64,000 nucleotides of DNA from an uncultured bacterium (GTDB lineage: Bacteria; Bacteroidota; Bacteroidia; Bacteroidales; CAIWKO01): assembly GCA_903862465.1 (NCBI GenBank), contig CAIOYH010000163.1, positions 7,289 to 71,288 on the forward strand, in the 5' to 3' direction. Each line of letters begins with the position of its first letter. Position 1 is the first letter of the stretch. Shown piece by piece: positions 1,365 through 63,576 of the stretch. Position numbers and translations under genes: made by a program. The notes beneath the pieces are model-generated. The model searched no databases. It was not told where the DNA came from and saw nothing but the letters and a program-made list of their open reading frames with translations.

Positions 1365-1422
1365 CATTTCTAATTATTTGGAAGGATTTGAATATAAAAA
1401 TTCTTTTATAAAAACTCTGAAA

Positions 1423-4053
1423 ATGAAAATTTTGATTAAAACGTTTCGCAGCACTAAATATGGAGTTGCATTTTTCTTACTCTTGTTATGTGTGATGCAA
1501 AGGAACCAAGTTTATGGTCAAGGGCAGTTTGTGCAAGTGGAAAGTATATTGGTAGATGCGTGTAGCAGTCCTGAAGGGGAGAACGAAATGGTGGGCATCC
1601 GAGTGGAAAGTGTTGCGGTGAATGTAGCTGATATTCGCGTGGATGGAGCTTTAAACGGGGGCGCATGGCAAACGAGTAAATGGCCCAATACGAGTAATTC
1701 CTTTTTGGGATGGATAGTGCCCGGCTCAGCAGATTATACCACAGCGGTATCGAAAGTGGCTCAAATTAATGCGGCTATGACTAATTGCGGGAAATTAATC
1801 ATGCCCACAGGAGGCACCAACAATCAAGGATTGATTCCGGCAGGAAAACATGCCATCATTATCACTAGCACTGCTTTTGCTCCTTTTGCCAACAATTTCA
1901 CGAACTTAGCAGATACTTTATATGTGATTTTTCAGATTGCAGGAAACACCTCAGGGCATTTTGCCAATTACACCTCCGGCACCGGATTGAGAGCACTGCG
2001 TTTGCATCAAATTTCAACAGGAACCAATGAGGATGCTACCTACGATAAAGCTTTATTGATAGACCAATCGGGAAATCACACCGCACAAGATGGCGCCGGA
2101 GTTCGATTTACGGATGCCGGTTTGGCTACCTATTATAATATAGGCTGTGTGGCACCTTTTATACCCTTGAATCCTGCGTGGACATCCCCTGCCACTTCCT
2201 GTCAATTCGTGTCTCCTTTGAGCTTGACTACGCTATTGAGTGGTTTTTCCACTCTGGGAGGAACATGGTCGGGAACAGGGGTAAGCGGCACTATGTTTAA
2301 TCCGAATGGCATAGCAGGAAGTTATGCCATAACCTATAGTGTGGGAACTGCACCTTGCAATTTAACCGAAACACATAACATAGTAGTTGCTTTTTCGTCT
2401 ATACCGTCTTGGACAGCCCCCGCGCCTTTATGCCAATCTGCCACACCGATTGATTTGGCTACCTTATTGGGAGGTTTATCCACATCAGGAGGAACGTGGA
2501 CCGGAATAAGCGTTAGCGGAACCATCTTTAGCCCTGCGGGATTGAATGGAAATATCAATATTACCTATTCTGTAGGCACTTCACCTTGTAATGCTACAGA
2601 AAGTCATTCGATACAAGTGGTAGCAAGTGCTATCCCAACATGGACAGCACCGGCACCTTTATGCCAATCTGCTACGCCCATTAATTTGAATACTTTATTG
2701 GGAGGTTCATCCACTTCGGGAGGAACATGGACAGGAACAGGCGTAAGCGGAACCACCTTTAGCCCTGCGGGATTGAATGGAAATATCACTGTTACCTATT
2801 CTGTTGGCACTTCACCCTGTAATGCTACAGAAAGTCATACGATACAAGTTATATCGACTGCTATCCCTACATGGACAGCCCCCGCACCTTTATGCCAATC
2901 TGCTACGCCGATTGATTTGAATACCTTATTAGGAGGTTTGTCCACATCAGGAGGAACATGGACCGGAACAGGGGTTAGCGGAACCATCTTTAGCCCTGCG
3001 GGATTGAATGGAAATATCAATGTTACCTATTCTGTAGGCACTTCACCTTGTAATGCTACAGAAAGTCATACGATTCAAATATTGCCTGATATGAATGCAG
3101 CTTGGACAGCTCCTGCGAATTCGATGTGTAATGACGCTGCGGCTATCAATTTGTCCTCACTCGTCACAGGCAATGCAGGAGGGACATGGAGTGGACAAGG
3201 GGTTAGTGGTACACAATTTAATCCTACAGGATTGAGCGGAGCCATAGCAGTCACGTATTCGGTTTCGGGTGCAAATGCTTGTCCTGATACCGTTACACAT
3301 ATCATTACCGTGATTCCCAAACCCAATGCTTCGTGGACTATTCCTCCCATGATTTGTACCAATCAAAGCACCTTCGATTTGAATACAGTTGTTACAGGGT
3401 CTATAGGTGGAACTTGGAGCGGAGTAGGTGTTAATTCCAATATTTTAGATCTTAGCAGTGTTGGTGCTTCGCTTATGGTTACTTATACAGTAAACAATGG
3501 AGGCTGCTCGGATTCGCAAAGTGGGTTATTGCATTTTTCGGTCTTCACTGCCGATTTTTCACTAAATACCTATTCGGGAATAGCGCCCTTAAATGTTTAT
3601 ACCACCAACTTATGCCAAAATGCTACATCCTATAATTGGAATTTTGGGAATGGAGAAACATCAACAGCTATTGAGCCATCAACAACTTATCTTTATGGCG
3701 GCACCTATAATGTTTGGTTGGTAGCAACCTCTGCACAAGGTTGTGTTGATTCGGTTCATAAAGTAGTGGTTATTGAAGAGTCGGGTGATTTTATACCCAA
3801 TGTGTTTACTCCTAATGGAGATGGATTGAACGAAACCTTTTATCCCGTGATTTCAAAAGTTGTTGATAGCTTTAATATGATTGTTTACAATCGTTGGGGC
3901 AACAAACTTTATGATAGCGATAGTCAATTGGATAAATGGGACGGAACCTACCAAGGTAAGTTTGTGCCGACAGGTGTGTATTTTTATGTGATAGCATATA
4001 AATTTAATCACAAAGCTATTCGCCATAATGGTACCATTACGGTGATATACTAA
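1423..4053 (+). CDS. Large secreted adhesin-like protein with a T9SS type-B (gliding-motility CHU_C-like) C-terminal sorting domain
   Basis: ATG 1423 gives the signal peptide MKILIKTFRSTKYGVAFFLLLLCVMQRNQVYGQ; the track ORF starts at the upstream TTG 1378. It has six ~77-aa Cys-containing Ig-like repeats (WTAPAPLCQSATPIDL..GGTWTG.GVSG..F.P.GL.G...TYSVG..C) and a PKD-like domain (YNWNFGNGETS..GGTYNVWLVA). The C-terminus reads IPNVFTPNGDGLNETF...WDGTY.G..VPTGVYFYVI..GTITVIY. Confidence 0.9.
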   Translation: MKILIKTFRSTKYGVAFFLLLLCVMQRNQVYGQGQFVQVESILVDACSSPEGENEMVGIRVESVAVNVADIRVDGALNGGAWQTSKWPNTSNSFLGWIVPGSADYTTAVSKVAQINAAMTNCGKLIMPTGGTNNQGLIPAGKHAIIITSTAFAPFANNFTNLADTLYVIFQIAGNTSGHFANYTSGTGLRALRLHQISTGTNEDATYDKALLIDQSGNHTAQDGAGVRFTDAGLATYYNIGCVAPFIPLNPAWTSPATSCQFVSPLSLTTLLSGFSTLGGTWSGTGVSGTMFNPNGIAGSYAITYSVGTAPCNLTETHNIVVAFSSIPSWTAPAPLCQSATPIDLATLLGGLSTSGGTWTGISVSGTIFSPAGLNGNINITYSVGTSPCNATESHSIQVVASAIPTWTAPAPLCQSATPINLNTLLGGSSTSGGTWTGTGVSGTTFSPAGLNGNITVTYSVGTSPCNATESHTIQVISTAIPTWTAPAPLCQSATPIDLNTLLGGLSTSGGTWTGTGVSGTIFSPAGLNGNINVTYSVGTSPCNATESHTIQILPDMNAAWTAPANSMCNDAAAINLSSLVTGNAGGTWSGQGVSGTQFNPTGLSGAIAVTYSVSGANACPDTVTHIITVIPKPNASWTIPPMICTNQSTFDLNTVVTGSIGGTWSGVGVNSNILDLSSVGASLMVTYTVNNGGCSDSQSGLLHFSVFTADFSLNTYSGIAPLNVYTTNLCQNATSYNWNFGNGETSTAIEPSTTYLYGGTYNVWLVATSAQGCVDSVHKVVVIEESGDFIPNVFTPNGDGLNETFYPVISKVVDSFNMIVYNRWGNKLYDSDSQLDKWDGTYQGKFVPTGVYFYVIAYKFNHKAIRHNGTITVIY
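2401..3093 (+). repeat. Three near-identical in-frame 231-bp tandem repeats inside the adhesin gene (more divergent copies span about 2170-3555)
   Basis: Repeat starts at 2401, 2632 and 2863 (231 bp apart). The encoded 77-aa units differ at only a few residues. The repeats also create the recurring antisense ORFs at 2334-2558, 2604-2789 and 2835-3020. Confidence 0.9.
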
Positions 4054-10910: not shown

Positions 10911-11264
10911 TCAACAAATTTCGGGAATACAACTGCCCACTTGTAATAACCATGTGGCTATAATGGGCAATATGAAATGGGTTGAAGGTTTGGGTTTCGG
11001 AGGTAGCTCTACCAAAAGAAGCAAATCGCCGCAGTGCATAAATTCGCCCGGCGATATTTGGAGCGTATTGGCTATAATCATCATCGTATCGAATTGGATG
11101 TTCATTTTTCCATGCTCTATCAAACTCAAATTCGAGCGAGGAATGCCCGAAAGCTCGCTAAAATGCTCTTGTGTGTACTTTTTATCACATCTTAGCTCAT
11201 AGAATCTGTTTCCATAAGCTATACTTTGCGTCGGAAACAGAATTGGTTTGCCGTTTCTTTCCAT
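10911..11264 (-). CDS. XRE-family helix-turn-helix transcriptional regulator (C-terminal part uncertain, possible frameshift)
   Basis: HTH_3-like core YELRCDKKYTQEHFSELSGIPRSNLSLIEHGKMNIQFDTMMIIANTLQISPGEF. The tail after PGEF looks unlike protein sequence, and another frame stays open down to 10795. Confidence 0.6.
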   Translation of the reverse strand: MERNGKPILFPTQSIAYGNRFYELRCDKKYTQEHFSELSGIPRSNLSLIEHGKMNIQFDTMMIIANTLQISPGEFMHCGDLLLLVELPPKPKPSTHFILPIIATWLLQVGSCIPEIC

Positions 11265-11486: not shown

Positions 11487-11820
11487 TTAGGCTTCGGCAA
11501 GCAACTTAGGGGCTTCGGAGAGAGACTCAGAGGCTACTTCGAACGACTTAGTGGCTGTGGAGAGCGAATTAGAAGCTTCGGAGAGCGAATTAGCGACTGT
11601 GGCGAACGACTTAGCTGCTAAGGATAGAGAATTAGCGACTGCATCGAACGACTTAAAGGCTTAGGCGAGAGAATTAGCGACTGCGGCGAGAGAATAAGAG
11701 GCTGAGGAGAGAGAATCAGAGGCTGCGGCGAACGACTTAGGGGCTTCGGAGGGAGAATCAGAGGCTTCGGAGAGCGAATTAGAGGCTTCGGAGAGCGAAT
11801 TAGGGGAAGAATTGCCCTCC
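11487..11820. repeat. 21-bp tandem array #2, 16 units (consensus TTAGAGGCTTCGGAGAGCGAA)
   Basis: Unit starts at 11506, 11527, ... 11800, 21 bp apart; the first unit is 19 bp. Two interleaved unit subtypes end in GAGAGCGAA or CGAACGAC. Confidence 0.95.
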
Positions 11821-11933
11821 GAAATGAAACCGCCTCATAATGAAGCAATTTAATGTAGATAAAAGTGGGTTTATACGCAAAATGGAATTATCAATTAAAT
11901 AAAATAAATGTTTCACTAAAAAACCTAATTATT

Positions 11934-12548
11934 ATGAACACAATTAAATACAGTTATTCAAAACTAGCCCAAGGCACTTTTCTCGAAAAACTTGGCTTTA
12001 TTATTTTTTCATGTACCGACAACGTCAACTTCCCCACATTGGTCGTAACTGTTGCTCTTATTATTGCCAAAAAAGAAGCATACGAAGAGCAATTAGACAA
12101 GTCGAAAGCGGGAGATCATCAAGCCACCACCTTGGCTCGGAAATACAGAAAAGAATTGGAGTTGATGTTGAAAAAGAATGGAATCTACATCAATTTTACT
12201 GCCGATGGAGACATAACAAAGTTAATTTCTAGCGGTTATGATTTGGCTAAAATTCCGGTAAGAACACCTCGTCCGGAAATAGAAATATTGCCATCGTCGC
12301 AACGCGGTGTAGCAAAAGTTATCATTCAAAAAGGTGAAAAGGATGTTGCTTATCAAGTGGAAACACATGCCGACCCCATTCCACCTTTGCCTGCCGACCA
12401 ACGTTGGCAACGGCAACCTATGTGTACAAGACATTATCAATCCATTTCGGGGATTCCTGTTGACACAAATATGTGGTTACGCTATTATACGGTTTCTCCT
12501 GATGGCGAAATCGGACCAAAAGGACCCTTTAAATTCAAAATTTTATAA
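11934..12548 (+). CDS. Hypothetical protein: helical N-terminal part plus Fn3/Ig-like C-terminal domain (paralog of 49772..50434)
   Basis: ATG 11934 (MNTIKYSYSKL); the track start is the upstream GTG 11865. It shares an architecture with 49772..50434: ..SSGYDLAK / ..RNGYGVGK, then a Pro-containing linker, then beta-rich G.VAK.I..K..K.Y.V. Confidence 0.65.
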   Translation: MNTIKYSYSKLAQGTFLEKLGFIIFSCTDNVNFPTLVVTVALIIAKKEAYEEQLDKSKAGDHQATTLARKYRKELELMLKKNGIYINFTADGDITKLISSGYDLAKIPVRTPRPEIEILPSSQRGVAKVIIQKGEKDVAYQVETHADPIPPLPADQRWQRQPMCTRHYQSISGIPVDTNMWLRYYTVSPDGEIGPKGPFKFKIL

Positions 12549-13830: not shown

Positions 13831-16800
13831 ATGAAAAAGAATCTATTTGCATTCGTTTTATTGGTAACACTTTTTAGTGTTGCGAAATCATTCGGACAAA
13901 CCAACACACGGTTTAACGATGGTTATCTCACTGTTTACAAAGCCACCTCGGCTTCTGCACTAGCCAACACAGGAACCGCCATTGTGGCTGAAGAATACAA
14001 CACCACCACAACTACACAAGCGGCTCCCAATTATAGTGTTGCCATTCCAACAGCCACGGGAAACAAGCTTGTTGTTTCGGGCACTGCCACATCTTCGGGA
14101 GGCATGACGCGTTCCGAAAATGGCAGATATTTATTGATGCCGGGCTACAATGGTTTGATAGGCGATGCCAATTCCACCTTTACCACCAATGGCGCAGTCA
14201 GAACGATAAATGGAACCGGAACTGTGGGCGCAGGAATTGCGGCAAATGGTTTACTTTGGCTGTCCGCTAGTAATAATTTAAGAGGAGCTACAAGCGATGA
14301 TGGCACCAATTATTGGATTTCGGGCAATGGAGTTGGCATACAAACTTCCACAACAGGAAACCCAATAACCACAATTACAACAACTTCAACCAACAATCGC
14401 GATGTAGTCATTTATAATGGACAATTGTATTTTACTACCGGTGCCGGTTCGCAAGGAATTTATAGTGTTTCAACAGGGAAACCTATCACAATCGGACAAG
14501 TTTCAACCCGATTGTTTACTCCTTTAAATACCGATACCTATGCTTTTTCAATCAGCCCCGATGCCACTACCTTATATTATGTGGCTTCCACCGGAGGCGG
14601 CATTTATCGTTGCACCTATAACGGAACTACTTGGACCACCGGAACGCAAATCGTTAGCGGCGCGGGCTACACCGGCATTGCTGTGGATTGGTCGAATTAT
14701 GCTTTTAGTGCTGCGGCTGCCAATGGAGCTAGAATTTTTGCTTCCAATCCTTCCACTATCATTGCTGCAAACGACAACGGAACGGCGGTTACTACTACCA
14801 CAATTTTAAGAACCGAGCCTGCTCCAACCATGAATGCATTTCGACAAATTGCATTTTCGCCCATCAAACAAACCATTACCCTCGGTGCAAATACGCCAAA
14901 CGCTTCCAATTTGAGTCCTTCCACAAACAATAATGTTTTATTCCAATTCAATTTGAATGCCAATGAAGGAAATGCTACACTGAAAAAATTAATTCTAAAT
15001 CAATCGGGAACCGCCACCATAGGTACAGGTAATGACATCAGCAATTTTAAACTTATTGATGATGCTAATAACAATGGTATAGCCGATCCTGCCGAACTTG
15101 CTTCCCCTTTGGCTACAGGCACTGTCGCTTCTTCAAATATTACATTCAGTTCTATTGTTCTTTCATCCTATATAACTGAAGGTACAAGCAAAAACTTTAT
15201 TATGGTGGGAGATGTTTCAGCCTCTGCGCCTAATGGAGCAACTTTTGTTCCAAGTATTGTTTCCAACAAAACATTAAACGGAAACAATTATACCACCAAT
15301 GCAGTCAATGCGGGAAATAGTTGGGTAACGATTGGTGCAACACCACCAACAGGCAACACATTGACTATTGCAAGCTGCACAGCACTGAGTATTACATCTC
15401 AAGCTGTAAGTCCAACGGCAGTTTGCGAAGGCAGCGGCACAGCAAAAATCTATACACATCTGATCGGCACAGCACCTTTCACCTATCAATGGAAAGAGAA
15501 CAATGTTCCGATTTCCAATAATGCTACTTACAGTGGAGCTACCTCTGATACGCTGAAAATTACGAATCCAAGTCTGTCATTAAATGGGAATACCTATAAA
15601 TGTGTTGTTTCAAATTGTGCGGGAACAGATTCCACCAACAATCTTGCAACCTTGACTGTTATTGCAGCTCCAAGCCAACCCACCGCAAGCGCCACAGGGC
15701 AACCTACGTGTTCTGTTGCCACAGGAGCCATTACGGTTACTGCACCTACGGGAGTTGGAATCACCTACAGCATTGATGGAACAACATACACCAACACCAC
15801 GGGCATTTTCAATGATGTAGCTGCAGGAAATTATTATGTTACGGTTAAGAATTCTGACAACTGTCCTTCACCTCAATCACCTCAGATAACCATCAATGCC
15901 CAACCGCAGACACCTGCCGCTCCAACAGTTAGTGTAACCGAACCTACATGTTCTTCTGCAAATGGAAATGTAGCCGTAACATCAACCACAACAGGCTTGA
16001 CCTTTAGTAACGATGGCGTAAACTATGCAGGGTATGCTTCACCATTTGTTTATGCAGCGAATGCCACCTATAGTATTACGGCTCAAAACACAAATGGATG
16101 TATCTCTTCGGCAGCTATCGGAACCTTAGCAGCTCAACCACAAACTCCATCTGCTCCGTCAGTAAGTGTAACACAACCAACCTGTGCATCTTCAAATGGA
16201 ACAGTAGCCATAACATCTTCCACAACGGGATTAACGTTCAGTACTGATAGTACAAACTATGCCGCATATACTTCCCCATTTGTGGTTGCTGCCAATGCCG
16301 CCTATAGCATCAAAGCAAGGAATGCAAGCGGATGTATATCCACCGCAGTTGCAGGAACCATGGGTGCTCAACCACAAACTCCTGCTGTTCCTTCAGTAAG
16401 CCTAACCCAACCAACTTGTTCATCTGCTACAGGAACCATAGCGATAACATCTTCTACAATAGGATTAACTTTTACTACCGATAGTGCGAATTTTGCTGCA
16501 TACGTTGCCCCATTTACCTTTGCAGCCAATGCAGCCTATAGTATCATGGCAAGAAATGCTGATGGATGTGTTTCAACAGCTACAACAGGCACAATGAATG
16601 CTCAACCGCAAACACCTGCTTCGCCTTCCGTAAGCCTTACCCAACCTACTTGTTCATCTGCCACCGGATCGGTAGCGATAACTTCTACCACAACGGGATT
16701 AACTTTCAGCACGGATGGTATTAACTATGAAGTGTATGCTTCACCTTTTGTTGTTTCATCCGGTGCAGCCTACAGCATCACGGCAAGAAATGCCGATGGA

Positions 16801-18036
16801 TGTACCTCATTGGCAACCGTAGGAACCATGGGAGTTCAACCCTCTACACCCAATACTCCTTCAGTAAACGTAACGCCACCTACTTGTTCATCTGCCACCG
16901 GAACTGTAGCGATAACTTCTTCCACCACAGGATTAACTTTCAGCACCGATGGAACAAACTACGCAGCATACAGTTCTCCGTATGTTGTTGCTGCCAATGC
17001 AGCCTATAGCATCACTGCGAGAAATGGCAACGGATGTGTATCAACAGCCGTAACGGGAACCATGGGTGCTCAACCACAGACTCCTGCAGCTCCAACGGTA
17101 AGTGTTACCCAACCTACCTTTGTTTCTGCCACCGGATTTGTTACTATAACATCTTCCACCACCGATTTAACCTTCAGCACGAATGGAATCAACTATGCTG
17201 CTTATGTTGCTCCTTACGAATTTGCTGCAAGTGCAGCGTATAGCATCACTGCAAGAAATCTTGCCGGATGTGTATCTGTTGCAACCACAGGCACCCTGAA
17301 TGCGCAACCTCAAAACCAAACTCCTCCATCGGTTAGTATTACGTCTCCGGCAAATGCCTCCGTGTTTGATGTTTCGGATACCATTCATATAGTTGTTGAT
17401 GCTGTGGCTAATGGTGGAAATATTGTTCATGTTGATTTTTTAATGGGTGATGTTTCTATAGGAACAGACTCTATTGCTCCTTATACCAAGAATATTATTA
17501 CGACGCCGGGAGTACATACCCTAAAGGCGATAGCTTATGACAATCATCTATTGTCAGATACGTCTGTAGCGGTAAACATTGTTGCAAACAATATAAAACA
17601 TCCGGTTGTCACGATTAATGCTCCAATTAATATCTATTTATTATACCTTGACGGAGATTCTATAACGGTTTCGACAAGCACATTTGGTGCTGCAGGCATT
17701 GCCTTCTTGGAATTCTTTATTGATAATGTTTCATTTGGCACAGACAATACGTTTCCGTATGCTAAAAAATTCTTGGGCGACTTCGGCTCTCATGCCATAA
17801 CTGCAAAAGTACATGATTTATTAGGTGGAGTATATACTTCTCCTGCGGCTAATTTATTTGTGAAGTTTAAACCATCCGATTTCAACAATGATGCAGTGAT
17901 TGATATTAATGATTATTCAATGTTTGTTGGTAGCTTTGGACAATCATGCAATTGTATGCAGGATTTAAACAGAGATGGCGTGGTAAATATAAACGACTTC
18001 TCCATATTTGTTGGCACTTTCGGTCAACATCATTAA
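13831..18036 (+). CDS. Giant secreted multi-repeat protein ending in a two-segment dockerin-like module
   Basis: Signal peptide MKKNLFAFVLLVTLFSVAKSFGQ. The ~520-aa N-terminal module is paralogous to that of 18316..22992. An Ig I-set-like domain (FTYQWKENNVPISNN..YKCVVSNCAG) follows. Then come seven ~78-aa repeats (PQTP..P.VS.TQPTCSS..G.VAITSSTTGLTFS.DG.NY..Y..PF...A.AAYSI.ARN..GC.S), two Ig-like domains, and the C-terminus DFNNDAVIDINDYSMFVGSFGQ..DLNRDGVVNINDFSIFVGTFGQ. Confidence 0.9.
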   Translation: MKKNLFAFVLLVTLFSVAKSFGQTNTRFNDGYLTVYKATSASALANTGTAIVAEEYNTTTTTQAAPNYSVAIPTATGNKLVVSGTATSSGGMTRSENGRYLLMPGYNGLIGDANSTFTTNGAVRTINGTGTVGAGIAANGLLWLSASNNLRGATSDDGTNYWISGNGVGIQTSTTGNPITTITTTSTNNRDVVIYNGQLYFTTGAGSQGIYSVSTGKPITIGQVSTRLFTPLNTDTYAFSISPDATTLYYVASTGGGIYRCTYNGTTWTTGTQIVSGAGYTGIAVDWSNYAFSAAAANGARIFASNPSTIIAANDNGTAVTTTTILRTEPAPTMNAFRQIAFSPIKQTITLGANTPNASNLSPSTNNNVLFQFNLNANEGNATLKKLILNQSGTATIGTGNDISNFKLIDDANNNGIADPAELASPLATGTVASSNITFSSIVLSSYITEGTSKNFIMVGDVSASAPNGATFVPSIVSNKTLNGNNYTTNAVNAGNSWVTIGATPPTGNTLTIASCTALSITSQAVSPTAVCEGSGTAKIYTHLIGTAPFTYQWKENNVPISNNATYSGATSDTLKITNPSLSLNGNTYKCVVSNCAGTDSTNNLATLTVIAAPSQPTASATGQPTCSVATGAITVTAPTGVGITYSIDGTTYTNTTGIFNDVAAGNYYVTVKNSDNCPSPQSPQITINAQPQTPAAPTVSVTEPTCSSANGNVAVTSTTTGLTFSNDGVNYAGYASPFVYAANATYSITAQNTNGCISSAAIGTLAAQPQTPSAPSVSVTQPTCASSNGTVAITSSTTGLTFSTDSTNYAAYTSPFVVAANAAYSIKARNASGCISTAVAGTMGAQPQTPAVPSVSLTQPTCSSATGTIAITSSTIGLTFTTDSANFAAYVAPFTFAANAAYSIMARNADGCVSTATTGTMNAQPQTPASPSVSLTQPTCSSATGSVAITSTTTGLTFSTDGINYEVYASPFVVSSGAAYSITARNADGCTSLATVGTMGVQPSTPNTPSVNVTPPTCSSATGTVAITSSTTGLTFSTDGTNYAAYSSPYVVAANAAYSITARNGNGCVSTAVTGTMGAQPQTPAAPTVSVTQPTFVSATGFVTITSSTTDLTFSTNGINYAAYVAPYEFAASAAYSITARNLAGCVSVATTGTLNAQPQNQTPPSVSITSPANASVFDVSDTIHIVVDAVANGGNIVHVDFLMGDVSIGTDSIAPYTKNIITTPGVHTLKAIAYDNHLLSDTSVAVNIVANNIKHPVVTINAPINIYLLYLDGDSITVSTSTFGAAGIAFLEFFIDNVSFGTDNTFPYAKKFLGDFGSHAITAKVHDLLGGVYTSPAANLFVKFKPSDFNNDAVIDINDYSMFVGSFGQSCNCMQDLNRDGVVNINDFSIFVGTFGQHH
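15904..17307 (+). repeat. Six in-frame 234-bp tandem repeats inside the gene (a more divergent unit precedes them from about 15670)
   Basis: PQTP-encoding unit starts at 15904, 16138, 16372, 16606, 16840 and 17074, each 234 bp apart. Confidence 0.9.
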
Positions 18037-25329: not shown

Positions 25330-27406
25330 TTGAATAAAAAAGAAAAATCGGAATTACTAAATAGAGAAGTTAGTTGGCTGTATTTCAATGGTAGGGTGTT
25401 GCAAGAAGCAGCAGACTCACGAAATCCATTGATAGAGCGACTTAGATTTCTTGGCATTTTTTCGAACAATAGAGACGAGTTTTTTCGTGTGCGTGTGGCT
25501 ACCTTGACGCGTTTGTTGAAAATACAGCAAACGCAGGAAGCAGGTTTGGCAGATCCCCGAAAAGTGTTAGACCAAATTGACGAAATTGTTAGTATCGAGG
25601 AAAAAGAATTTATGAAGACATATCATCAAATTCTTGAAGAGATGGCTTCTAAGAATTTGTTTATCATAAATGAAACGGAACTTTCTGCCGAGCAAGGCGT
25701 TTATCTGAAAAAATATTTTTTGGAAACCATTCGCCCCTGTCTTTTTCCGATAATGATTAGCAATTTGAAAGATATTTCGACCCTGCGCGACAGGTCAATA
25801 TATTTGGCGGTGAGTTTGCGCAGGAAAAGCAGGTTGATGAAGGAAGAATATGCGCTGATTGAGTTGCCCACCAAAACTATTTCGAGGTTTTGTATTTTGC
25901 CCACCGAGGGCGATAAAAAATTTGTGATTCTATTGGACGATATCGTGCGTTATTGTTTGTCGGATATATTTTCTGTTTTCGGGTGGGATGCTTTTAGCGC
26001 CTATACGGTGAAAATTACCTTGGATGCTGAGATTGATATTGATACCGATGTGTCGAAAAGCTTTTTGGAAACCATGACCGAAAGCCTGAAACAACGAAAG
26101 AAAGGAAATCCGGTGCGGTTTGTTTATGACAAAGACATGCCAATCGCGCTGTTAAAAACCTTAACCAAGCTGTTGAAGATTCGTAAAGAAGATCCCATCA
26201 GAGGTGGTGGCAGGTATCATAATTTTAAAGATTTTATGCACTTTCCCAATTTGGATCATCCCGAATTGGAGTATCCTCCTTTGCCTCCTTTGCGCCATAA
26301 AGATTTGCCACCCAACAGAAGCATACTTGCTGCGATTCGAAAAAAGGACATCATGCTGCATTATCCGTATCAATCTTTTCAAATCATCATTGATATGTTG
26401 CGCGAAGCTTCTATTGACCCCAAAGTGCGCTCCATAAAAATGACTATTTATCGCGCAGCAAAAAATTCTGATGTGATTAATGCCTTGCTGAATGCTGCCC
26501 GAAATGATAAGAAAGTTACAGTTTTCATGGAGCTGCAAGCACGATTTGATGAGCAAGCAAATATCTTTTGGACAGAACTTTTGCAGGAAGAAGGGGTGCG
26601 TGTCATACAAGGAATTCCCGGATTTAAGGTGCATAGCAAATTGATTTTGATTCGAAGCAAAGAGAATGAAAAAAACATCTTTTATGCCAACATCGGTACG
26701 GGGAATTTTAATGAAGATACGGCGCGTGTTTATGCCGATGATAGTTTGTTGACCTCCGACTCAAAGATTACTGCCGATGTGGCGAATGCCTTTAATCAAA
26801 TGGAAGCCAACTATCGTCCCATTAAATATAAATCTTTAGTGTTGGCGCCGTTCATGATGCGTAATACTTTCATGAAAATGATTTCGCATGAAATTCGAAA
26901 TGCAAAAGCCAATAAACCGGCATGGATTCTGATAAAATTAAACAATTTGGTTGACGAAACCATCATCCAAAAACTGTATAAAGCGAGTCAAGCAGGCGTG
27001 AAAAATCAATCTTATTGTCAGAGGTATTTGTGTGCTGAAACCCGGTGTGAAAGGTTTGAGCGATAATATAGAAGCCATTAGCATTGTTGACCGATTTTTG
27101 GAACACTCCCGTGTGCTTGTGTTTTGCAATGCAGGCAATCCTCACTATTTTATCACATCGGCTGATTGGATGATACGCAATTTCGACAACCGTATTGAGG
27201 TGGCGTGCCCCATTTATGACACGGATTTGCAAAAAGAACTCATGACGATGCTCCAAATTCAAATGGCTGATAATGTTAAAGCGCGAGATTTGAGCAGTAA
27301 AAAAATCAATGCGTATGCCAAATCATCAAAACGAATCATACACTCCCAATTAGAAATTTATAATTATTTTAAAACATCTCTTGAATCAGCAGAAACAGAA
27401 TCCTAA
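25330..27406 (+). pseudogene. ppk1: Polyphosphate kinase 1, frame broken by one extra A in the A5 run at 27001-27005 (fragments 25330..27066 and 27032..27406); probably a homopolymer sequencing error
   Basis: N-terminus LLNREVSWLYFNGRVLQEA, plus the PLD-like C-terminal domains. Deleting one A restores ..[44 protein letters not shown].., which matches my memory of the conserved PPK1 sequence. The restored length is 691 aa. The apparent start is a TTG, with no in-frame ATG nearby. Confidence 0.9.
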
Positions 27407-27941: not shown

Positions 27942-28844
27942 ATGTTATTTGCCTCTATTGATATCGGAACAAACGCTGTTCGTTTGTTATTTTCAAATGT
28001 TTATCTTCGCGATGAACAAATTTATGCTGAAAAAGCTTCCATCATACGCATCCCGATACGTTTGGGCGAAGATGTTTTTTCTATAAACTATATTTCTGAA
28101 GAGAAAATAGACCTTTTATTAAAAACCATGCGTGCCTTTAAACTGTTGATGGATGTTTACCGACCTCTTTCCTACATAGCCTGCGCCACTGCTGCCATGC
28201 GTGAAGCTTCCAATAGCGATGAGGTGGTCAGAAGAATTAAAGAAGAAGTGGGTATTGACATCAAGGTGATTAGCGGCAAGGAAGAAGCCGACATCGTTAC
28301 GGCAAGCAATCATGTGGTTTTGAAAGAGCCATTTAAGTACAAAATGTATGTGGATGTGGGCGGCGGAAGCACCGAAATTTCGCTTTTAAATCATCAAGGG
28401 CTTGTAGCATCAAAATCGTTTAAAATCGGAACCATTCGCTATTTAAAAAATAAAATAGATGAAAAGGAATGGGCAAAGATGCAAGATTGGTTGCTTGAAT
28501 TTAAAAAGGACTTTGGCAAGATTTATTTGGTGGGTTCGGGCGGCAACATCAACAAAATAACCAAAATGTATGGCAACAGAGATGCTTTTATGATTGAAAA
28601 GGAAGAGTTGATGAAAGCCTATGAGCAATTGAGCAAATTGACTTTAGCCGACCGCATCGAAATGTTGGGTTTGCGTCCCGATAGAGCCGATGTTATTGTG
28701 CCTGCGGCTATTATATTTATCAAAATAATGACTTGGATACGGACAGAAGTTGTGTATGTGCCTAAAATCGGATTGGCAGATGGATTGATTTATAAAGGTT
28801 ACTACGAATATCTTAAAAATAGTCCGGTTGAAAAATTCTTTTAA
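27942..28844 (+). CDS. ppx: Ppx/GppA-family exopolyphosphatase
   Basis: MLFASIDIGTNAVRLLF, ATAAMREASN and VDVGGGSTEISL are ASKHA/Ppx-GppA motifs. The start lies 1 nt after the preceding stop. Confidence 0.85.
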   Translation: MLFASIDIGTNAVRLLFSNVYLRDEQIYAEKASIIRIPIRLGEDVFSINYISEEKIDLLLKTMRAFKLLMDVYRPLSYIACATAAMREASNSDEVVRRIKEEVGIDIKVISGKEEADIVTASNHVVLKEPFKYKMYVDVGGGSTEISLLNHQGLVASKSFKIGTIRYLKNKIDEKEWAKMQDWLLEFKKDFGKIYLVGSGGNINKITKMYGNRDAFMIEKEELMKAYEQLSKLTLADRIEMLGLRPDRADVIVPAAIIFIKIMTWIRTEVVYVPKIGLADGLIYKGYYEYLKNSPVEKFF

Positions 28845-29088
28845 TGGCACCACATGGATTCACAGCTATTCTACAGCCGTGTGTAAACGAGATATGTTCG
28901 GTATCAACTCCGAAACGCATGTCATCGTGCGTGCTCAATTCATCATCAGCTACGATGCGCCTTGGATTGGACAATATCGAACACCGTGAATGTATCCTAT
29001 TGGCGGATTTCGTTCCTATTACATTAGATGTACAAAAACGAATATACGGAACGGCGAAAAACACATCGAAGGTAGCTAAAAGCATGCC

Positions 29089-29352
29089 GGCTACGCCTAG
29101 GACCACAATGGCGACGCCCAGGACCACAATAGCGACGCCCAGGACCACAATGGCGACGCCCAGGACCACAATGGCGACGCCCAGGACCACAATGGCTACG
29201 CCTAGGACCACAATGGCGACGCCTAGGACCACAATGGCGACGCCCAGGACCACAATGGCGACACCCAGGACCACAATGGCGACACCTAGGACCACAATGG
29301 CTACGCCTAGGACCACAATTGTTACGCCTAGGACAACAATTGCTTTAGCTAG
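29089..29352. repeat. 21-bp tandem array #3, 12 near-identical units plus a partial unit (consensus GGCGACGCCCAGGACCACAAT)
   Basis: Unit starts at 29089, 29110, ... 29320, exactly 21 bp apart, with only 1-3 substitutions per unit. The array is visibly more GC-rich than its flanks and sits between convergent genes. Confidence 0.95.
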
Positions 29353-29515
29353 TATGGTTTTGACGACCTCCGATAAAATCTTGTCAACTTTGAATCAATT
29401 GTTTATGCAATTGTGATTTATCACTTTTCTTGTTATAAAGTCGAAGAGAATGAATTGGAATATAATCTGAAAGAACTATATATCTGAAGATTTATTCAAC
29501 TTTCGGTATTCCATA

Positions 29516-31159
29516 TTATGTATCCCATTTACGCATTCTATCATACAAAATAATCCCTTCGTATTTATCAAGCAAGATAGATTCGGAGTGTAAAGTGTCG
29601 CAATGAATTTCGTTGGTAGAATAGATTTTCTTAAACTCGGTAGCTTCGGGCAAATCTATACGGCGTTGTTTGGGTTTGAAATTGATGAGAATTAAATATT
29701 TTTGATTTTCAAATTGACGAAAATATCCCAACACGCCATCCCTTCCTTTGATGAAAGGAATCCAATCTCCCTTATGCAATGCAGGATTTTCATTGCGCAA
29801 AGCGATTAAAAATTTATAATGATTCAAGATGGAATAATGAAGTTCTTCTAAGGTTTTCACGCAGCGGTGTCGCCATTTGGTGTCAATCGGAAGCCAAGGT
29901 TTGACAGTAGAAAATCCACCGAAATCATCATCGTCCCATTGCATAGGCGTGCGGCATTTGTCTCTGCCGCTATAAAGGGGCCAAATCTTTTTGCCCAAAG
30001 GGTCTTTCAGTTCGTTTTTCGGAATCCGCACATTGCCCATGCCAATTTCTTCGCCATAATAAATAAAAGGCGTTCCTTTTACGGTGAATTGAAACAAAGC
30101 GATGAGTTTTGCCACGTCGTGTTTGTTGCGTCGAAACCACAAACGATTGTAGTTGCGCCCCAAATCATGATTGGAAAACACATGAGTAGCCCATTCAATT
30201 TTATCGGCATTGTTGTTCCATTTTTTGAGATATTTGTAGTAAACCCGAGCGTTGAATGGGCGAAACACCAACGAAAAATCGAATGCCAAATGCAAGCGTC
30301 TTTTGTTTTTGTTGATATATTTCATCACTGTTTTAGGCTTTCCGGGCGGCAACACATAAATTTCGCCTATGCTGATGCGGTTGGGATACGTGTCCAAATG
30401 TTTTCTCAAACGTTCCACAACCTTGAAAGCCCCTTTTCGATTTCTGTTATAAATATGCTTTTGAAACCATGGGAGAAAGGCAAACACGGGGTTTGAGCGC
30501 AATTGCTTATCCTTCACTATCATGTTTATCACATCCAAGCGAAAGCCATCCACGCCCTTTTGGAGCCAAAAATCTATAATCGCAAAAAATTCGTCAGCCA
30601 TTTCTTTGCAGCGCCAATTCAAATCGGGTTGTTCTTTCAAAAAAGAGTGCATGTAATAGCTTTGCGTGGTTTCATCAAACTGCCATGCACTGCCGCCGAA
30701 AGCATTTTTCCAATTGTTTACAGGTTTCTTTTTAAGCCCGTCAGACCATAGATACCAATCTCGTTTCGGGTTTTCGCGTGATGATTTCGATTCCAAAAAC
30801 CATGGGTGTTGGTTAGAGGTATGATTCATCACCAAATCCATTATCACGTGAATATCGCGCTGATAACACGCATGCAATAACTGATTGAAATCGTCCATCG
30901 TTCCATAAATAGGATCAATTTCATAATAATCGCTTATGTCATATCCAAAATCTTTTTGCGGCGATTTATAGATGGGCGAAAGCCAAATGGCGTTCACTCC
31001 TAAATCTTTAATGTAATCAAGTTTGCGAATAATGCCCTGCAAATCGCCCAACCCATCGTGATTCGAATCATAAAAACTCATGGGGTAAATGTGGTAAACA
31101 ACCCCGTGTTTCCACCACACATGCTCCGAATCTTCCGCTTTAGTCGGGGAAATGAACAT
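29516..31159 (-). CDS. GH13 alpha-glucosidase / oligo-1,6-glucosidase-like glycoside hydrolase
   Basis: WWKHGVVYHIYPMSFYDSNHDGLGDLQGI..LDYIKDLGVNAIWLSPIYKSPQKDFGYDISDY, DLVMNHTS, GFRLDV and GEIY are GH13 conserved regions. The start overlaps the upstream gene by 20 nt. Confidence 0.9.
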   Translation of the reverse strand: MFISPTKAEDSEHVWWKHGVVYHIYPMSFYDSNHDGLGDLQGIIRKLDYIKDLGVNAIWLSPIYKSPQKDFGYDISDYYEIDPIYGTMDDFNQLLHACYQRDIHVIMDLVMNHTSNQHPWFLESKSSRENPKRDWYLWSDGLKKKPVNNWKNAFGGSAWQFDETTQSYYMHSFLKEQPDLNWRCKEMADEFFAIIDFWLQKGVDGFRLDVINMIVKDKQLRSNPVFAFLPWFQKHIYNRNRKGAFKVVERLRKHLDTYPNRISIGEIYVLPPGKPKTVMKYINKNKRRLHLAFDFSLVFRPFNARVYYKYLKKWNNNADKIEWATHVFSNHDLGRNYNRLWFRRNKHDVAKLIALFQFTVKGTPFIYYGEEIGMGNVRIPKNELKDPLGKKIWPLYSGRDKCRTPMQWDDDDFGGFSTVKPWLPIDTKWRHRCVKTLEELHYSILNHYKFLIALRNENPALHKGDWIPFIKGRDGVLGYFRQFENQKYLILINFKPKQRRIDLPEATEFKKIYSTNEIHCDTLHSESILLDKYEGIILYDRMRKWDT

Positions 31160-35054: not shown

Positions 35055-35495
35055 AAAGAATATATATTATAAATTATGGTTGCAAAAGTAATAGCGCAAT
35101 ATTACTTACATATTAAGGGAATATTATTTCTGTATTAAGAAATGAAAGATAAATAAGACTTGTCAAAAACAATCCCTCTAAATTAGTTCAAACTACAAAA
35201 AGATAAAAATGATTTACAAAAGCCATGAAAATACAATTACCTCGTTATATCCTTTAGGCTATAAATCTTTTTCAAATCATTAGTAAACTGGTTCGACTTA
35301 ATACTTTCAAGGGCTACCTTATAGGAGATTCAGATTTTGCTTGATTGTTGAATTGTTTTCCTACTGTATTCGAATACGTATATTATGTTTACAGACATAA
35401 AAAAGCCAATGTCACAATATAATTATATCTAAATATCTATATAACAAATATATATAATTGTATTGCAACTATTCATGACACTATTTCAACTTAAA

Positions 35496-35767: not shown

Positions 35768-35867
35768 ATTTTTAATTCATAGATATGAAATCTAAAAAAT
35801 TTCAACGTGTCATAATTAAATTTACATTATATTTTTTCAAAAATAATTTTCACATGAAAATATTTTG

Positions 35868-35875
35868 TACTTTTG
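35868..35875 (+). promoter_or_regulatory. Candidate -7 promoter box (TAnnTTTG) within the 13-mer gtacttttgttgc
   Basis: tacttttg lies 24 bp upstream of ATG 35899. The 13-mer is identical to 13751-13763. Confidence 0.45.
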
Positions 35876-35898
35876 TTGCAACCAAAAAAAATAATAAT

Positions 35899-36762
35899 AT
35901 GAAAAAAATTCTACTTCTATTATGCTTAGTAATGGCTATAAACATTACTGTTTCAGCCCAAGACTCAATAGTAACCTATAGGTTCAAAGTCAATAAAGAT
36001 AGTTCGCAAACTTGGGGAAATGCTTACAATGTTGACAATATTGTGTTGAGAGATGCAACTTATCATCCTCTTTATGCTTACACATCAGGTGTTGATGGCA
36101 ACTCTCCCTTAGATTATTGCCTTTCTTCCACAGTTTGGACACTTGGACTTGATTCACTAAAAAACTATTACACATCATTTGCAACTACTGCTTATACCAA
36201 TATACTTGTATCGAGCCGGCAGAAATCATCCACAACAGGACCTCGCGATTTTAAGTTGCAATACAAAGTTGGTGCGCCGGGGACATGGGCAGATGTAACT
36301 GGCGGAACAGTTGTTTGTGCCAACGATGCTTGGATTTCGGGAACATTAACCGACATCGCGCTTCCTTTGGATTGCGATAATCAACCTTCGGTCTATTTAC
36401 GTTGGGTGGTAAATACTAACACCTCAGTTGGTTTAGCGACAATTGCTGCTGCTGGCACATCTAGAATTGATAATATTGTTATTAAAGGAACTGCGATGGG
36501 TGTTGGCATCAAAACCAATGATTTGAACCAAAACATTAGTATTTATCCCAATCCATCGAATGGGAATTTCACTATTACGAATGCTTCAGAGAAATCTGTT
36601 TCTATCGAGATTATGGATTTAGTGGGTAAATTGGTATTTCAATCTCAATCGGCTGAAAGATATGTCAAACTTGATTTGGCAGATGTCAATAAAGGCGTTT
36701 ATTTCGTCAGAATCACCGACCAATCGGGCAACAAAGTCGTGAAGAAACTTGTCATAAAATAA
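35899..36762 (+). CDS. Secreted protein of unknown function with a T9SS type-A sorting domain
   Basis: ATG 35899 gives the signal peptide MKKILLLLCLVMAINITVSAQ; the track ORF starts earlier, inside the repeat array. The C-terminus reads ISIYPNPSNGNFTI...GVYFVRITDQSGNKVVKKLVIK. Confidence 0.85.
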   Translation: MKKILLLLCLVMAINITVSAQDSIVTYRFKVNKDSSQTWGNAYNVDNIVLRDATYHPLYAYTSGVDGNSPLDYCLSSTVWTLGLDSLKNYYTSFATTAYTNILVSSRQKSSTTGPRDFKLQYKVGAPGTWADVTGGTVVCANDAWISGTLTDIALPLDCDNQPSVYLRWVVNTNTSVGLATIAAAGTSRIDNIVIKGTAMGVGIKTNDLNQNISIYPNPSNGNFTITNASEKSVSIEIMDLVGKLVFQSQSAERYVKLDLADVNKGVYFVRITDQSGNKVVKKLVIK

Positions 36763-49771: not shown

Positions 49772-50434
49772 ATGACAGATATTAATACAGATATCTCAGT
49801 TGCTGCAGTGCAATTAGTTTCAAAGAGACCGGTGCATGTTGCAGACAACATTACAATTTTTAGTACTACTTTAGATAAATTGGAAAGCAGCGGCGACAAT
49901 CTTGTTAAGCCTGCTGACATGATTATTTATCGTGGTAACGTCACCACCTTAAGCACCTGTCAAGATGATATGAGAGGTGGTGCTGACGATAAAAAACCCA
50001 AGAGAGACAAAGCTTATAGCGTATGTTTTGGCGACAACCGGACGAATATGCTTAAAGTTGAAGGAGCCTTGATTGGCATACCTAACCCTATGGATAAGGA
50101 AGCCCTAATCTTGAGAAATGGTTATGGAGTGGGAAAAGAACATGGTCCGATATCCAATCCGGATATTAGCATAAAAAATAAGAAAAACCAACCGGGCACT
50201 GTTGTTGCTAAAATAAAAAGCCCTAGCAAGACCAAATCGTATTCTGTTGATTGGCAAAGCAGCACAGATAATGGTGAGACATGGACACCCCATAATTCTA
50301 CTCCTGTTTGTAAACGGGAACTAAAAAACATGCCTTTAGCTTCACAACTGATAGTGCGCGCTAGAATTACGATTGGAAGCAACGACCCTGAAGGTTGGAA
50401 AGTTTCTAGTACTTTAGTAGTAGGAGCAGTATAG
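49772..50434 (+). CDS. Hypothetical protein with an Fn3/Ig-like C-terminal domain (paralog of 11934..12548)
   Basis: Same layout as 11934..12548: helical N-terminal half, RNGYGVGK, then PGTVVAKIKSPSKTKSYSVDWQSSTDNGETW.. No signal peptide. Confidence 0.65.
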   Translation: MTDINTDISVAAVQLVSKRPVHVADNITIFSTTLDKLESSGDNLVKPADMIIYRGNVTTLSTCQDDMRGGADDKKPKRDKAYSVCFGDNRTNMLKVEGALIGIPNPMDKEALILRNGYGVGKEHGPISNPDISIKNKKNQPGTVVAKIKSPSKTKSYSVDWQSSTDNGETWTPHNSTPVCKRELKNMPLASQLIVRARITIGSNDPEGWKVSSTLVVGAV

Positions 50435-50522
50435 CAGCTTCATCGCTCTGTTTAACTTCTTAGATATAATTGTGGTAGGTGTTTCATAACGCGAAACACT
50501 TTCTTCCAATTATGGAAGAGCC

Positions 50523-50669
50523 GATTCCGTTCATGACGGGGAAGATTCCATTCGTGACGGAGCAGATTCCGTTCATGACGGGGAAGATTCCGTTCATGAC
50601 GGAGCAGATTCCATTAACGACGGAGCTGATTCCATCAACGACGGAGCTGATTCCATTCGTGACGGAGTA
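50523..50669. repeat. 21-bp tandem array #5, 7 units (consensus GATTCCGTTCATGACGGRGMA)
   Basis: Unit starts at 50523, 50544, ... 50649, 21 bp apart. Each unit contains the dyad ccgt-N5-acgg. Confidence 0.95.
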
Positions 50670-62387: not shown

Positions 62388-63512
62388 TTATTTACAATAT
62401 TGCTTCAGTTTCGCTTCCGCAAATTTGCTGCCCAACTCCGCCGCTTTTTTCCAATCGGCGCAGGCTCCGGGGAGGTCTTTCGCCGTATATTTCACATCCG
62501 CACGTTTCGTGTAGGCGCTCACATAGCTCGGATTTAGCTCTATCGCTTTCGTGAAATCCTCCAACGCCCCCGCCGTTTTACCCCCTTGTTCCTTACACAA
62601 AGCACGATTGAAATACGCTTTCGAATCTCCCGAATGCTTCAACAAAAATATCGTGTAGTCGCTCTCCGCATCCTCAAATTTCTTCATCTCATAACGCGTC
62701 AAACCTCTATTGTAATACGCATCCACATAATCTTTTTGTTTCGTGATAACCGTCGTGTAATCCGCCTCGGCGCTCACAAAATCCTTCATTTCAAACTCCG
62801 TGAACGCTTTGTTGTAATAGCTTTCCACATACGAAGGTTTAATCGCTATGGCGCTATCATAATCCTGCAACGCCTCCTTATATTTCTTCAGATGACTCTG
62901 CGCCATCCCGCGGCTGATATACGCGCGATAGTCCTTCGGCGCATTTTCAATCACGCGGTTGAAATCCCCTATCGCATCCTCATAATTACCCAAAATGCCA
63001 TACGCCATCCCGCGGTTATAATACGCATCATTATAATTCTTTTTCAGCGCTATCGCGTGCGTATAATCATCCACGGCGCCCGCATTGTCCTTCGCCAAAT
63101 ACTTAAGATAGCCCCTCGTGAAATACGCCCGTTCATTTTTGTTCGACAGGCGGATGGCGGTGTCGCAATCTGCCAACGCTTCCCTGTTTTTGTTCAGGTT
63201 CGTATAGGTGATGCCGCGGTTCGTATAAAACTCCGTCTCCTTATTGTTAAACTCTATCGCCGTATTGAAAAATTTCAGCGCCTCGCCGAAGTTCCCGATG
63301 GCATTATACGACAAAGCCTTGTAGAAATACGCATCCGCGAAATCCTTTTTCTGCCCTATCGTCTTGTCGAAATCCAGAATCGCATCCACAAAATACCCAT
63401 TTTTATACTTATCCAAACCCATCTTGAAACTCTCCATATAGGTTTGCCCCCAAGCGCTCCCCGTCATCAATCCCCACAACACAGCAAGGAAAATCGTTTT
63501 TTTCAACCGCAT
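62388..63512 (-). CDS. Secreted tetratricopeptide-repeat protein
   Basis: ATG 63512 gives MRLKKTIFLAVLWGLMTGSAWGQ. About nine TPR units (A..DY..AI...P.Y..AYYNRG). The C-terminal cap is CADWKKAAELGSKFAEAKLKQYC. Confidence 0.85.
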   Translation of the reverse strand: MRLKKTIFLAVLWGLMTGSAWGQTYMESFKMGLDKYKNGYFVDAILDFDKTIGQKKDFADAYFYKALSYNAIGNFGEALKFFNTAIEFNNKETEFYTNRGITYTNLNKNREALADCDTAIRLSNKNERAYFTRGYLKYLAKDNAGAVDDYTHAIALKKNYNDAYYNRGMAYGILGNYEDAIGDFNRVIENAPKDYRAYISRGMAQSHLKKYKEALQDYDSAIAIKPSYVESYYNKAFTEFEMKDFVSAEADYTTVITKQKDYVDAYYNRGLTRYEMKKFEDAESDYTIFLLKHSGDSKAYFNRALCKEQGGKTAGALEDFTKAIELNPSYVSAYTKRADVKYTAKDLPGACADWKKAAELGSKFAEAKLKQYCK

Positions 63513-63576
63513 AAATATTTTTTTGGCAAAGATAAACAACCTTGGGGAGATATACGACGTTTTCTTATGCTAAATC

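Follow-up and report, generated by a model that had tools for sequence, protein, structure and literature searches.

INTRODUCTION

Bacterial VNTR or minisatellite loci, such as the MIRU-VNTR loci of Mycobacterium tuberculosis, are intergenic repeats of tens of base pairs that differ between strains by whole units and serve as typing markers. Plasmid iterons are sets of 5-10 or more direct repeats of ~19-22 bp, or about two helical turns, that are specific to the replicon and are located directly upstream and/or downstream of the gene for their binding protein; examples are the seven 22-bp repeats of R6K and the incC and incA repeats flanking repA in P1. The centromeres of type Ib and type II partition systems (parC/ParR and the omega-binding heptads) are tandem direct repeats; a small protein from a neighbouring gene binds to them cooperatively along one face of the helix. 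The sites of LytTR regulators (AgrA, ComE, and PlnC) are 9-bp direct repeats with 12-bp spacers, giving 21 bp from centre to centre, and promoter-proximal contingency loci include the 7-bp repeats upstream of the Haemophilus influenzae hmw genes. Within the collection of papers searched, none dealt with 21-bp intergenic arrays in Bacteroidota, and for iterons there were only generic plasmid papers.

The locus described here, referred to as the target array, consists of 21-bp units located between ppx and a GH13 gene in a window of 64 kb, this being the whole stretch of DNA that was analysed. It is compared below with other arrays of the same period, most of which were found beside members of a gene family here named Z. 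The coordinates of the features are collected in Table 1.

RESULTS

Structure of the target array

The initial annotation had reported twelve head-to-tail 21-bp units between convergent genes. The array was recovered by TRF with a period of 21, 12.0 copies, 93% matches, 0% indels, and a score of 392, and was found to extend to 29352 through a partial unit. The neighbours were confirmed to be convergent and to encode a Ppx-GppA protein (27942..28844, plus strand; E 2e-39) and a GH13 alpha-amylase (29516..31159, minus strand; E 2e-130). The reported 1-3 substitutions per unit had to be revised: four units match the consensus, seven differ from it at one or two positions (0, 0, 0, 0, 1, 1, 1, 2, 2, 2, and 2 across these eleven), and the last differs at five. 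Transitions were indeed in the majority, with 10 against 6 transversions when counted by occurrence, and every change was from G or C to A or T. The array was also richer in GC (0.59, or 0.62-0.63 in 150-bp windows) than its flanks (0.36), the value for the whole window being 0.39, and C exceeded G on the ppx-sense strand.

With up to three mismatches allowed, the unit occurred 11 times, all within the array, against 0.00 expected in shuffled sequences, and a search of the rest of the 64-kb window gave no further occurrence. Among 185,579 GTDB species genomes, the unit was found in one. Head-to-tail units of 21 bp fall within the range of 10-100 bp that is usual for VNTR loci. The palindromic unit dispersed at many loci that is typical of REP/BIME elements was not found, as the target unit has only a 6-bp palindrome (CCTAGG), and no Rfam family was matched anywhere in the window. 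The observation that no canonical terminator follows either gene was upheld, with no terminator-like hairpin in 28500-29900 (1.4 expected), and the array itself did not contain the GC-rich hairpin and U-tract of an intrinsic terminator. Nothing pointed to the array acting as a substitute where terminators would be expected, since the RNA folding z-scores were only −2.0 and −2.3.

Table 1. Positions of the target array, the Z-family genes, and the arrays associated with them; coordinates are those of the window, and for other contigs the distance from the Z gene is given
Feature	Position	Strand	Description
Z-family C-terminal pseudogene remnant	28831..28989	+	~50 codons and stop (28987-28989); fused out of frame to the 3' end of ppx
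Target array	29089..29340	none	12 tandem 21-bp units, consensus GGCGACGCCCAGGACCACAAT; VNTR with variable copy number
Partial degenerate 13th unit	29341..29352		12 bp, TGCTTTAGCTAG; from reading of the sequence; identical in L001 and L002
Segment of ~70 bp	29402..29474	−	Conserved with L031 and L033, where it directly precedes another period-21 array (X)
Intact Z-family gene	49772..50434	+	220 aa; four-helix N-domain and FN3/Asp-box beta-sandwich; paralogue of the target remnant
Terminator-like hairpin	50477..50501	+	9-bp stem, then TTTCTT; between Z and array W
Array W	50518..50667		Period 21, 7.1 copies, 82% matches, unit GAGCAGATTCCATTCATGACG; 84 bp downstream of Z (TRF); also in L037
Array upstream of g11865	11489..11803		15 copies, 68% matches, 0 indels; 61 bp upstream of g11865 (TRF)
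Distant Z-family member g11865	11865..12548	+	227 aa
Array of L034/L035 (P0011)	75 bp after Z stop		11.6 / 13.7 copies, unit ACGATTGCCGGAGCAACTACC
Array of L040/L041 (P0015)	143 bp after Z stop		11.7 copies, unit GGCATCGCTTGTACAGTCGAT
Array of L042 (P0017)	180 bp after Z stop		At least 10.8 copies, unit TACATGGTGGAGTGTCCGCTA
Array of L043 (same P0017 protein)	~190 bp after Z stop		Unit CTTCAAGAAGACATCATGTCA; contig ends in array
Array of L039 (P0013)	~80 bp after Z stop		Degenerate 21-bp units; contig ends

Copy number in independent assemblies

The exact ppx and GH13 proteins are present on several freshwater-lake metagenome contigs. The number of target units was 7 in L001, 12 in the window, and 13 in L002/L030 and, by spacing, in record 7d2NG6sI, all of these counts being derived from metagenome assemblies. 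The flanks in L002/L030 are identical to those of the window, and the difference consists of one extra consensus unit. In L001, units 2-6 are absent, and since units 1 and 6 are identical, their loss is the expected product of recombination between these two. The single GTDB species genome containing the unit provided a further contig (L005), the flank of which is ~89-90% identical to that of the window (26 differences in 244 bp); its array has the same consensus unit in a different unit order and with private variants. The whole-unit differences together with the reshuffled order in L005 indicate that units are being gained, lost, and homogenised. The expansion or ongoing homogenisation proposed from the single sequence was thereby borne out within the assemblies of one organism, and the strain comparison yielded the whole-unit variation that defines a VNTR and makes the array usable as a marker. 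A second copy-number variant was found between L034 and L035.

The target array is real and varies by whole units. For individual copy numbers, short-read assembly error may have occurred: at least four short-read contigs, among them L003, L004, L005, and two further records, end in or next to the array, and at ~27001, in ppk1, the window has at least one site that is probably a single-base error or frameshift. It is nevertheless hardly credible that assembly produced the array or its copy number as an artefact, because the same variants were found in the same order in independent assemblies from different samples (window, L001, L002/L030, and record 7d2NG6sI), with only whole-unit differences between them, and because the variants among the units render most junctions unique over the length of a read. 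Relative to the intact orthologue on L001 (691 aa), an A-run in the ppk1 gene (25330..27406) is longer by one A, which divides the gene into two ORFs; the cause is either a recent frameshift or an error of sequencing or assembly.

Coding potential of the arrays

As initially annotated, both strands are open across the array, reading (MATPRTT)n on the plus strand (28844..29416, 190 aa) and (VLGVAIV)n on the minus strand (28813..29316, 167 aa). These ORFs had been regarded as spurious, and this is probably correct, as they lack homologues, are both broken in L005, and are inconsistently called. No homologue of the 167-aa minus ORF was found outside its own 90% cluster among 5.8 billion proteins, and the sequence of the plus ORF was absent from the protein collection searched. 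Gene callers disagreed between assemblies, one having the plus ORF annotated and others the minus ORF. Stops have appeared in both frames in L005 within the 245 bp that separate ppx from the array, and comparison of these 245 bp with L005 gave no frame with a coding-like substitution pattern. The only starts available to the minus ORF are GTG codons inside the units, there being no start codon upstream of the repeats.

The distribution of variants was also considered. Occurrences in the target units fall 15/0/1 by codon phase, that is, 15 of 16 in one phase. In the minus frame, 6 of the 7 distinct events are synonymous and 1 is nonsynonymous, giving an uncorrected p of 0.007 with 54 frame tests run; when the events of the window and L005 were pooled, 7 of 10 were synonymous, which by our own calculation gives p ~0.08 if only G/C-to-A/T mutations are allowed. 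The two candidate frames share their third positions, and these are 6/7 G+C in a genome of 39% GC. A six-frame coding test of nine arrays found no open frame with a consistent synonymous excess and no purifying selection in the other eight. The array upstream of g11865 has stops in all six frames and yet keeps its register without indels at 68% identity, and none of the three minus-strand frames of the L043 unit is open. Taken together with the lack of overall similarity among units (below), these results argue for conservation of the 21-bp register as a property of the DNA. An apparent ATG-NN-GGAG core and a "Met-first heptad" frame were rejected, as both fail in L042 and had been chosen after the fact. 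For the target, then, neither the start codon and conserved ORF nor the homologues or consistent purifying selection expected of a repeat-protein gene were found, and the array is probably noncoding.

A Z-gene remnant beside the target array

The 245 bp following ppx are more than an intergenic spacer and were found to hold the last ~50 codons of a dead Z paralogue. In a tblastx comparison of the spacer with the window, 28843-28962 (plus strand) matched the C terminus of the intact Z gene with 40% identity over 40 aa. This was supported by P0011, the only close homologue of Z, which as an independent query also matched the fragment in both the window and L005, and by hmmsearch with the Z-family profile, in which the remnant aligned to profile positions 158-200 with E values of 5e-9 (window) and 3e-10 (L005). 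Beyond the breakpoint, ppx reads on for its final 7 codons (SPVEKFF*).

The origin of the junction was deduced from two contigs, L031 and L033, in which the GH13 protein is at least 90% identical and the interval between GH13 and ppx contains three additional genes and a different array. The ppx C terminus reads ...YEYLKNQKS* in these contigs versus ...YEYLKNSPVEKFF* in the window, and nucleotide homology to their ppx ends at window position 28820. These observations indicate that a deletion or rearrangement joined the interior of a Z paralogue to ppx directly behind ...YEYLKN. Since L005, the nearest relative, shares this junction, the Z gene was lost before the two lineages split. To judge from these comparisons, the position of the target between convergent genes is a secondary result of the deletion or rearrangement.

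The target array starts 100 bp past the stop of the remnant, compared with 75-190 bp past the Z stop in the intact modules of close relatives. It therefore has, like them, a same-strand Z coding sequence within ~200 bp of a period-21 array of at least 5 copies, and the layout matches that of the window Z/W pair, L034, L040, L042, L043, and L039. Apart from the Z remnant, no flanking module shared among the five period-21 arrays of the window was found by blastn or tblastx. The gene geneC of L033 and g50898 were considered as Z relatives and rejected by hhalign. By blastn, the ~70-bp segment on the other side of the target is 78-86% identical to L031 5942-6015 and L033 5974-6015. Array X (L031 6008-6240, L033 6012-6240), which occupies the same slot beside this segment as the target does in the window, is AT-rich and consists of ~11 degenerate units of period 21, each with the palindrome TTTTGTAgaTACAAAA, and the units of the two contigs correspond one to one as orthologues.

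The Z family

A full HMMER scan of 1.84 billion representatives returned only 31 relatives of Z (representatives clustered at 50% identity), of which ~20 are full-length at 200-242 aa. No fitting family was found in Pfam, PHROG, NCBIfam, or PADLOC. An AlphaFold2 model built from a 20-sequence alignment (pLDDT 90.9) comprised four helices followed by a beta-sandwich, and Foldseek searches of PDB and BFVD together with a profile search of PDB sequences recovered only FN3 domains and the Asp-box motif. The members are mostly basic (pI 9-10.8), especially in the sandwich domain. The distant member g11865 was aligned to the family by hhalign with 86% probability (E 4.6e-6, 162 columns) and was recovered by hmmsearch with an E value of 6e-5. 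Neither Z nor the target unit was found in viral contigs, phages, or plasmids, and the other genes of the window are ordinary chromosomal ones that include no recombinase or reverse transcriptase. As far as can be told from sequence, Z is an uncharacterised orphan gene family of ~220 residues in a small group of uncultured freshwater Bacteroidota.

Period-21 arrays at Z loci and elsewhere

At every readable Z-family locus, a period-21 array of 7-15 copies was found beside the gene, with a different unit at each. The set comprised eight contigs with seven distinct gene loci, several contigs ending inside the array; those counted were window Z/W, L034/L035, L040/L041, L042, L043, L039, g11865, and L044, in addition to the target. 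Z and array W form the intact counterpart of the target module. The array follows the gene stop in the six close relatives and immediately precedes the gene in the two distant members, one of which (P0034, L044) has a degenerate stretch with significant 21/42-bp autocorrelation. On the P0014 contig, an unannotated 95-aa ORF was found right after Z. In a control of 180.5 kb from 24 other Bacteroidota loci, there was no Z gene and no period-21 array of at least 5 copies. At the level of sequence comparison, the tight association of the Z family with period-21 arrays is demonstrated by these data.

The Z-linked units have no motif common to all, their mean best circular identity being 9.6/21 versus 9.3 for shuffled units (p = 0.10). 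Two array pairs have kept residual similarity (13/21 and 14/21), and this points to common ancestors from which they diverged rapidly. The window contains five period-21 arrays with unrelated units in 64 kb (745-975, 11489-11803, the target, 35494-35736, and 50518-50667), and several of them show a 42-bp superperiod of two alternating unit variants. The arrays at 745 and 35494 are located just upstream of the genes for T9SS cargo proteins at 1378..4053 and 35785..36762. A profile search found no Z remnant near these two arrays or near array X, and the lineage therefore makes period-21 arrays elsewhere too.

Hairpins with T-runs lie between Z and the array at W, L042/L043, and L044; that preceding array W was obtained from the ViennaRNA fold of 50435-50517 and was not called by a simple terminator scan. 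TAnnTTTG boxes (the Bacteroidota −7 element) occur 60-170 bp beyond arrays W, L034, and L040, shortly ahead of the following gene on the same strand. Such a box follows the array in 5 of 9 cases, and as the motif is common (0.9 per kb per strand), its presence there is weak evidence. Except at the target, all arrays with a readable far flank are followed by a co-directional gene, mostly for a secreted, T9SS, or outer-membrane protein. The target is the only array between convergent genes, which fits a stranded relic.

The contigs L042 (1089-1498) and L043 (816-1122) encode an identical Z protein followed by a near-identical 140-bp segment (two mismatches) with a strong hairpin terminator, and diverge abruptly after GATGATGATATT into unrelated period-21 arrays. 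This pair represents either replacement of the array at a fixed breakpoint or two paralogous loci.

Several further observations were made around the modules. A gene for a stand-alone LytTR-domain protein of 127 aa (L034 3118-3501) directly precedes the Z homologue; tblastn detected no LytTR gene in the window, and none was found at any other module. An XRE-type HTH gene (10911..11264, minus strand) is divergent from g11865, and the 15-copy array fills most of the 600-bp intergenic region; this gene is a candidate regulator of the g11865 module. A 16-bp unit, ATGGTTACATTGTTGG, occurs twice at 12670-12701, 122 bp after g11865, and is similar to a 16-bp repeat of L034/L035 as given by its TRF consensus; as a shared element it was rejected as probably due to chance, since the degenerate pattern had no exact match in 44 loci. 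The organism carrying the P0011 module also has a 10-bp-period array of AATGACAATT at L034 815-947 and L035 387-519 (12.6 copies; superperiods of 20 and 30 bp), which precedes a ferritin gene; this period is one helical turn as against two. Just past the ORF at 62388..63539 in the window, (AAATACC)x10 (63572-63644) and (CTTGGAT)x5 (63755-63792) flank a 41-bp unit present 1.9 times at 97% identity (63664-63742). A 231-bp repeat (2.9 copies, 2410-3078) in the ORF at 1378..4053, which has PKD and CHU_C (T9SS) domains, and a 234-bp repeat (5.5 copies, 15897-17180) in the ORF at 13831..18036 are coding domain repeats unrelated to the 21-bp arrays.

DISCUSSION

The reading that we prefer, with a probability of about 0.55, is that the target array is a noncoding VNTR homogenised by recombination and the relic of a Z-array module, and that the arrays of intact modules serve as in-phase platforms for protein binding. 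The module would consist of two parts, a gene for a Z protein of ~220 residues and, beside it, 7-15 tandem 21-bp units specific to the locus. At the target, a deletion or rearrangement fused ppx to the interior of a Z paralogue and left ~50 codons of it, and the array half would have survived. Its homogeneity may be upheld simply by slippage or unequal recombination between units, for which selection at the locus would not be needed, and without a same-strand downstream gene it is probably a functionless relic that acts as a VNTR only. In intact modules, the array appears to be bounded on the Z side by a terminator-like hairpin and on the other by the promoter region of the gene that follows, and the exact register of 21 bp, or two helical turns, would be kept even where coding is impossible. 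The role of the array is most likely to be exerted at the DNA level, as a platform on which protein would bind cooperatively and in phase, as on iterons, centromeres, and upstream activating sites. From its adjacency and charge, the usually basic Z protein would be the obvious candidate binder.

Several findings speak against parts of this interpretation. The identical Z proteins with unrelated arrays in L042 and L043 are hard to reconcile with sequence-specific binding by Z, and the units lack a common motif. The synonymous bias in the minus frame of the target array also counts against it, the sample of modules is small at eight contigs, and the structural matches of Z to generic FN3 domains only give DNA binding by this protein no direct support. 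The partner gene of the target was dead before L005 split off, yet the array is still long and homogeneous, and it could therefore have a function independent of the Z gene.

The principal alternative is that the arrays are ordinary neutral minisatellites in a lineage prone to intergenic 21-bp arrays, with the Z association a by-product, for example of a mutational hotspot, and no function anywhere. The two window arrays that have no nearby Z remnant, array X in the relatives, the unrelated units of different loci, the occurrence of one Z gene with two different arrays, the persistence of the target without its gene, and the variation by whole units that slippage predicts are all consistent with it. 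We nevertheless consider it unlikely. All eight readable Z-family contigs have an adjoining array while the control loci have none, and paralogues only ~40% identical have all kept theirs, which, in genomes that as a rule purge useless DNA, implies that the arrays have been retained over a long time. Furthermore, the period is always 21 and never 20 or 22, even after 32% divergence without a single indel, and the residual similarity within two array pairs suggests descent with the gene rather than repeated birth de novo. It was also considered that the array is all or part of a small heptad-repeat protein gene, (VLGVAIV)n on the minus strand or (MATPRTT)n on the plus strand with a hydrophobic tail, encoding a hypervariable partner of Z. 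The period of exactly 7 codons with 0% indels in every Z-linked array, the concentration of target variants at third codon positions with the minus-frame synonymous excess, and the frame that is open on the Z strand in every array agree with such a gene, as do the ORF predictions, the ATG located at the first unit of Y, W, and L034 or immediately ahead of it, and the similar tail and flank of Y and L034 (TGSTTTTGAC; VLTTS vs LLTS). These array-start ATG codons, however, sit in degenerate units and are not independent evidence, and the GC content of the third positions offers another account of the codon-phase pattern. The proposal is rendered improbable by the lack of homologues beyond the 90% cluster, the stops flanking the ORFs in L005, and the absence of purifying selection in any frame of the other eight arrays. 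It is opposed as well by the register kept through stops upstream of g11865, the stops in L042 in the frame set by the unit ATG, the closed minus strand of L043, the missing start codon of the minus ORF, and the position of the array after a terminator-like hairpin with no recognisable promoter.

A role of the target as an unconventional terminator or insulator between the ppx and GH13 transcripts, through RNA structure, Rho loading, or a protein roadblock, appears very improbable. It would account for the lack of a canonical terminator after both genes, for the GC-rich composition with C above G on the ppx-sense strand, and for the slightly better folding of both strands than of shuffled sequences. 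The convergent arrangement is, however, secondary, the same interval in close relatives being occupied by three genes and another array, and equivalent arrays elsewhere lie between co-directional genes, following a separate hairpin terminator. The folding scores are weak and unaccompanied by an Rfam match, and no array was found downstream of ppx at 24 more distant loci.

Returning to the module, a wider and more doubtful proposal is that Z and its hypervariable period-21 arrays make up a chromosomal gene-array system. Z or a partner might assemble in phase on the array and so tune or insulate the neighbouring genes, mostly for secreted proteins, or arrays might be actively replaced as cassettes, at a set breakpoint downstream of Z, as hinted at by L042 and L043; the target would then be a stranded array. 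A free sequence combined with a period fixed at two helical turns beside an orphan family is the pattern expected of a DNA-protein assembly device, and to our knowledge no such device has been described for the fold of Z or for this phylum. Should the association be functional, it would represent a new kind of repeat-based element in bacterial genomes; if it is not, an unusual mutational bias toward 21-bp minisatellites in one lineage has been documented. The target array alone is a useful strain marker, and it carries a warning for annotation, as gene callers turn it into "proteins" of 155-174 aa on either strand.

Comparison with known systems

CRISPR arrays resemble the Z arrays in having a short repeated unit beside a conserved protein gene and in being hypervariable between strains. 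The Z arrays differ in that units abut without spacers, as also in the target, the repeat changes between loci, and cas genes are lacking, no cas domain having been found among the window proteins scanned. Contingency loci share copy-number-variable repeats upstream of genes for secreted or surface proteins, which is true of most arrays described here; unlike them, a 21-bp unit preserves helical phase on expansion, and the target has no downstream gene. The LytTR sites have the same 21-bp period, and the L034 module has a LytTR gene immediately upstream of Z, but those sites are pairs whereas the Z arrays have 7-15 copies, and only the L034 module has such a gene beside it. In contrast to partition systems, no ParA/ParM ATPase or RHH protein was found near the Z arrays, and several modules occur within 64 kb of chromosome. 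The direct repeats of ~17-22 bp phased at about two helical turns that characterise iterons were found in all Z-linked arrays, at exactly 21 bp. An adjacent Rep initiator gene in a plasmid or phage replicon was not found, nor does the repeat co-vary with a binding protein, the identical P0017 being accompanied by two unrelated arrays. With VNTR loci, the target shares its head-to-tail units, whole-unit differences, and homogenisation by slippage or unequal recombination. The Z arrays depart from these in being tied to one orphan family, in a period fixed at 21 bp despite unrelated units, and in a constant position relative to the gene. The target array is thus a VNTR, which is a known kind of locus, but of a gene-linked variety that was previously undescribed.
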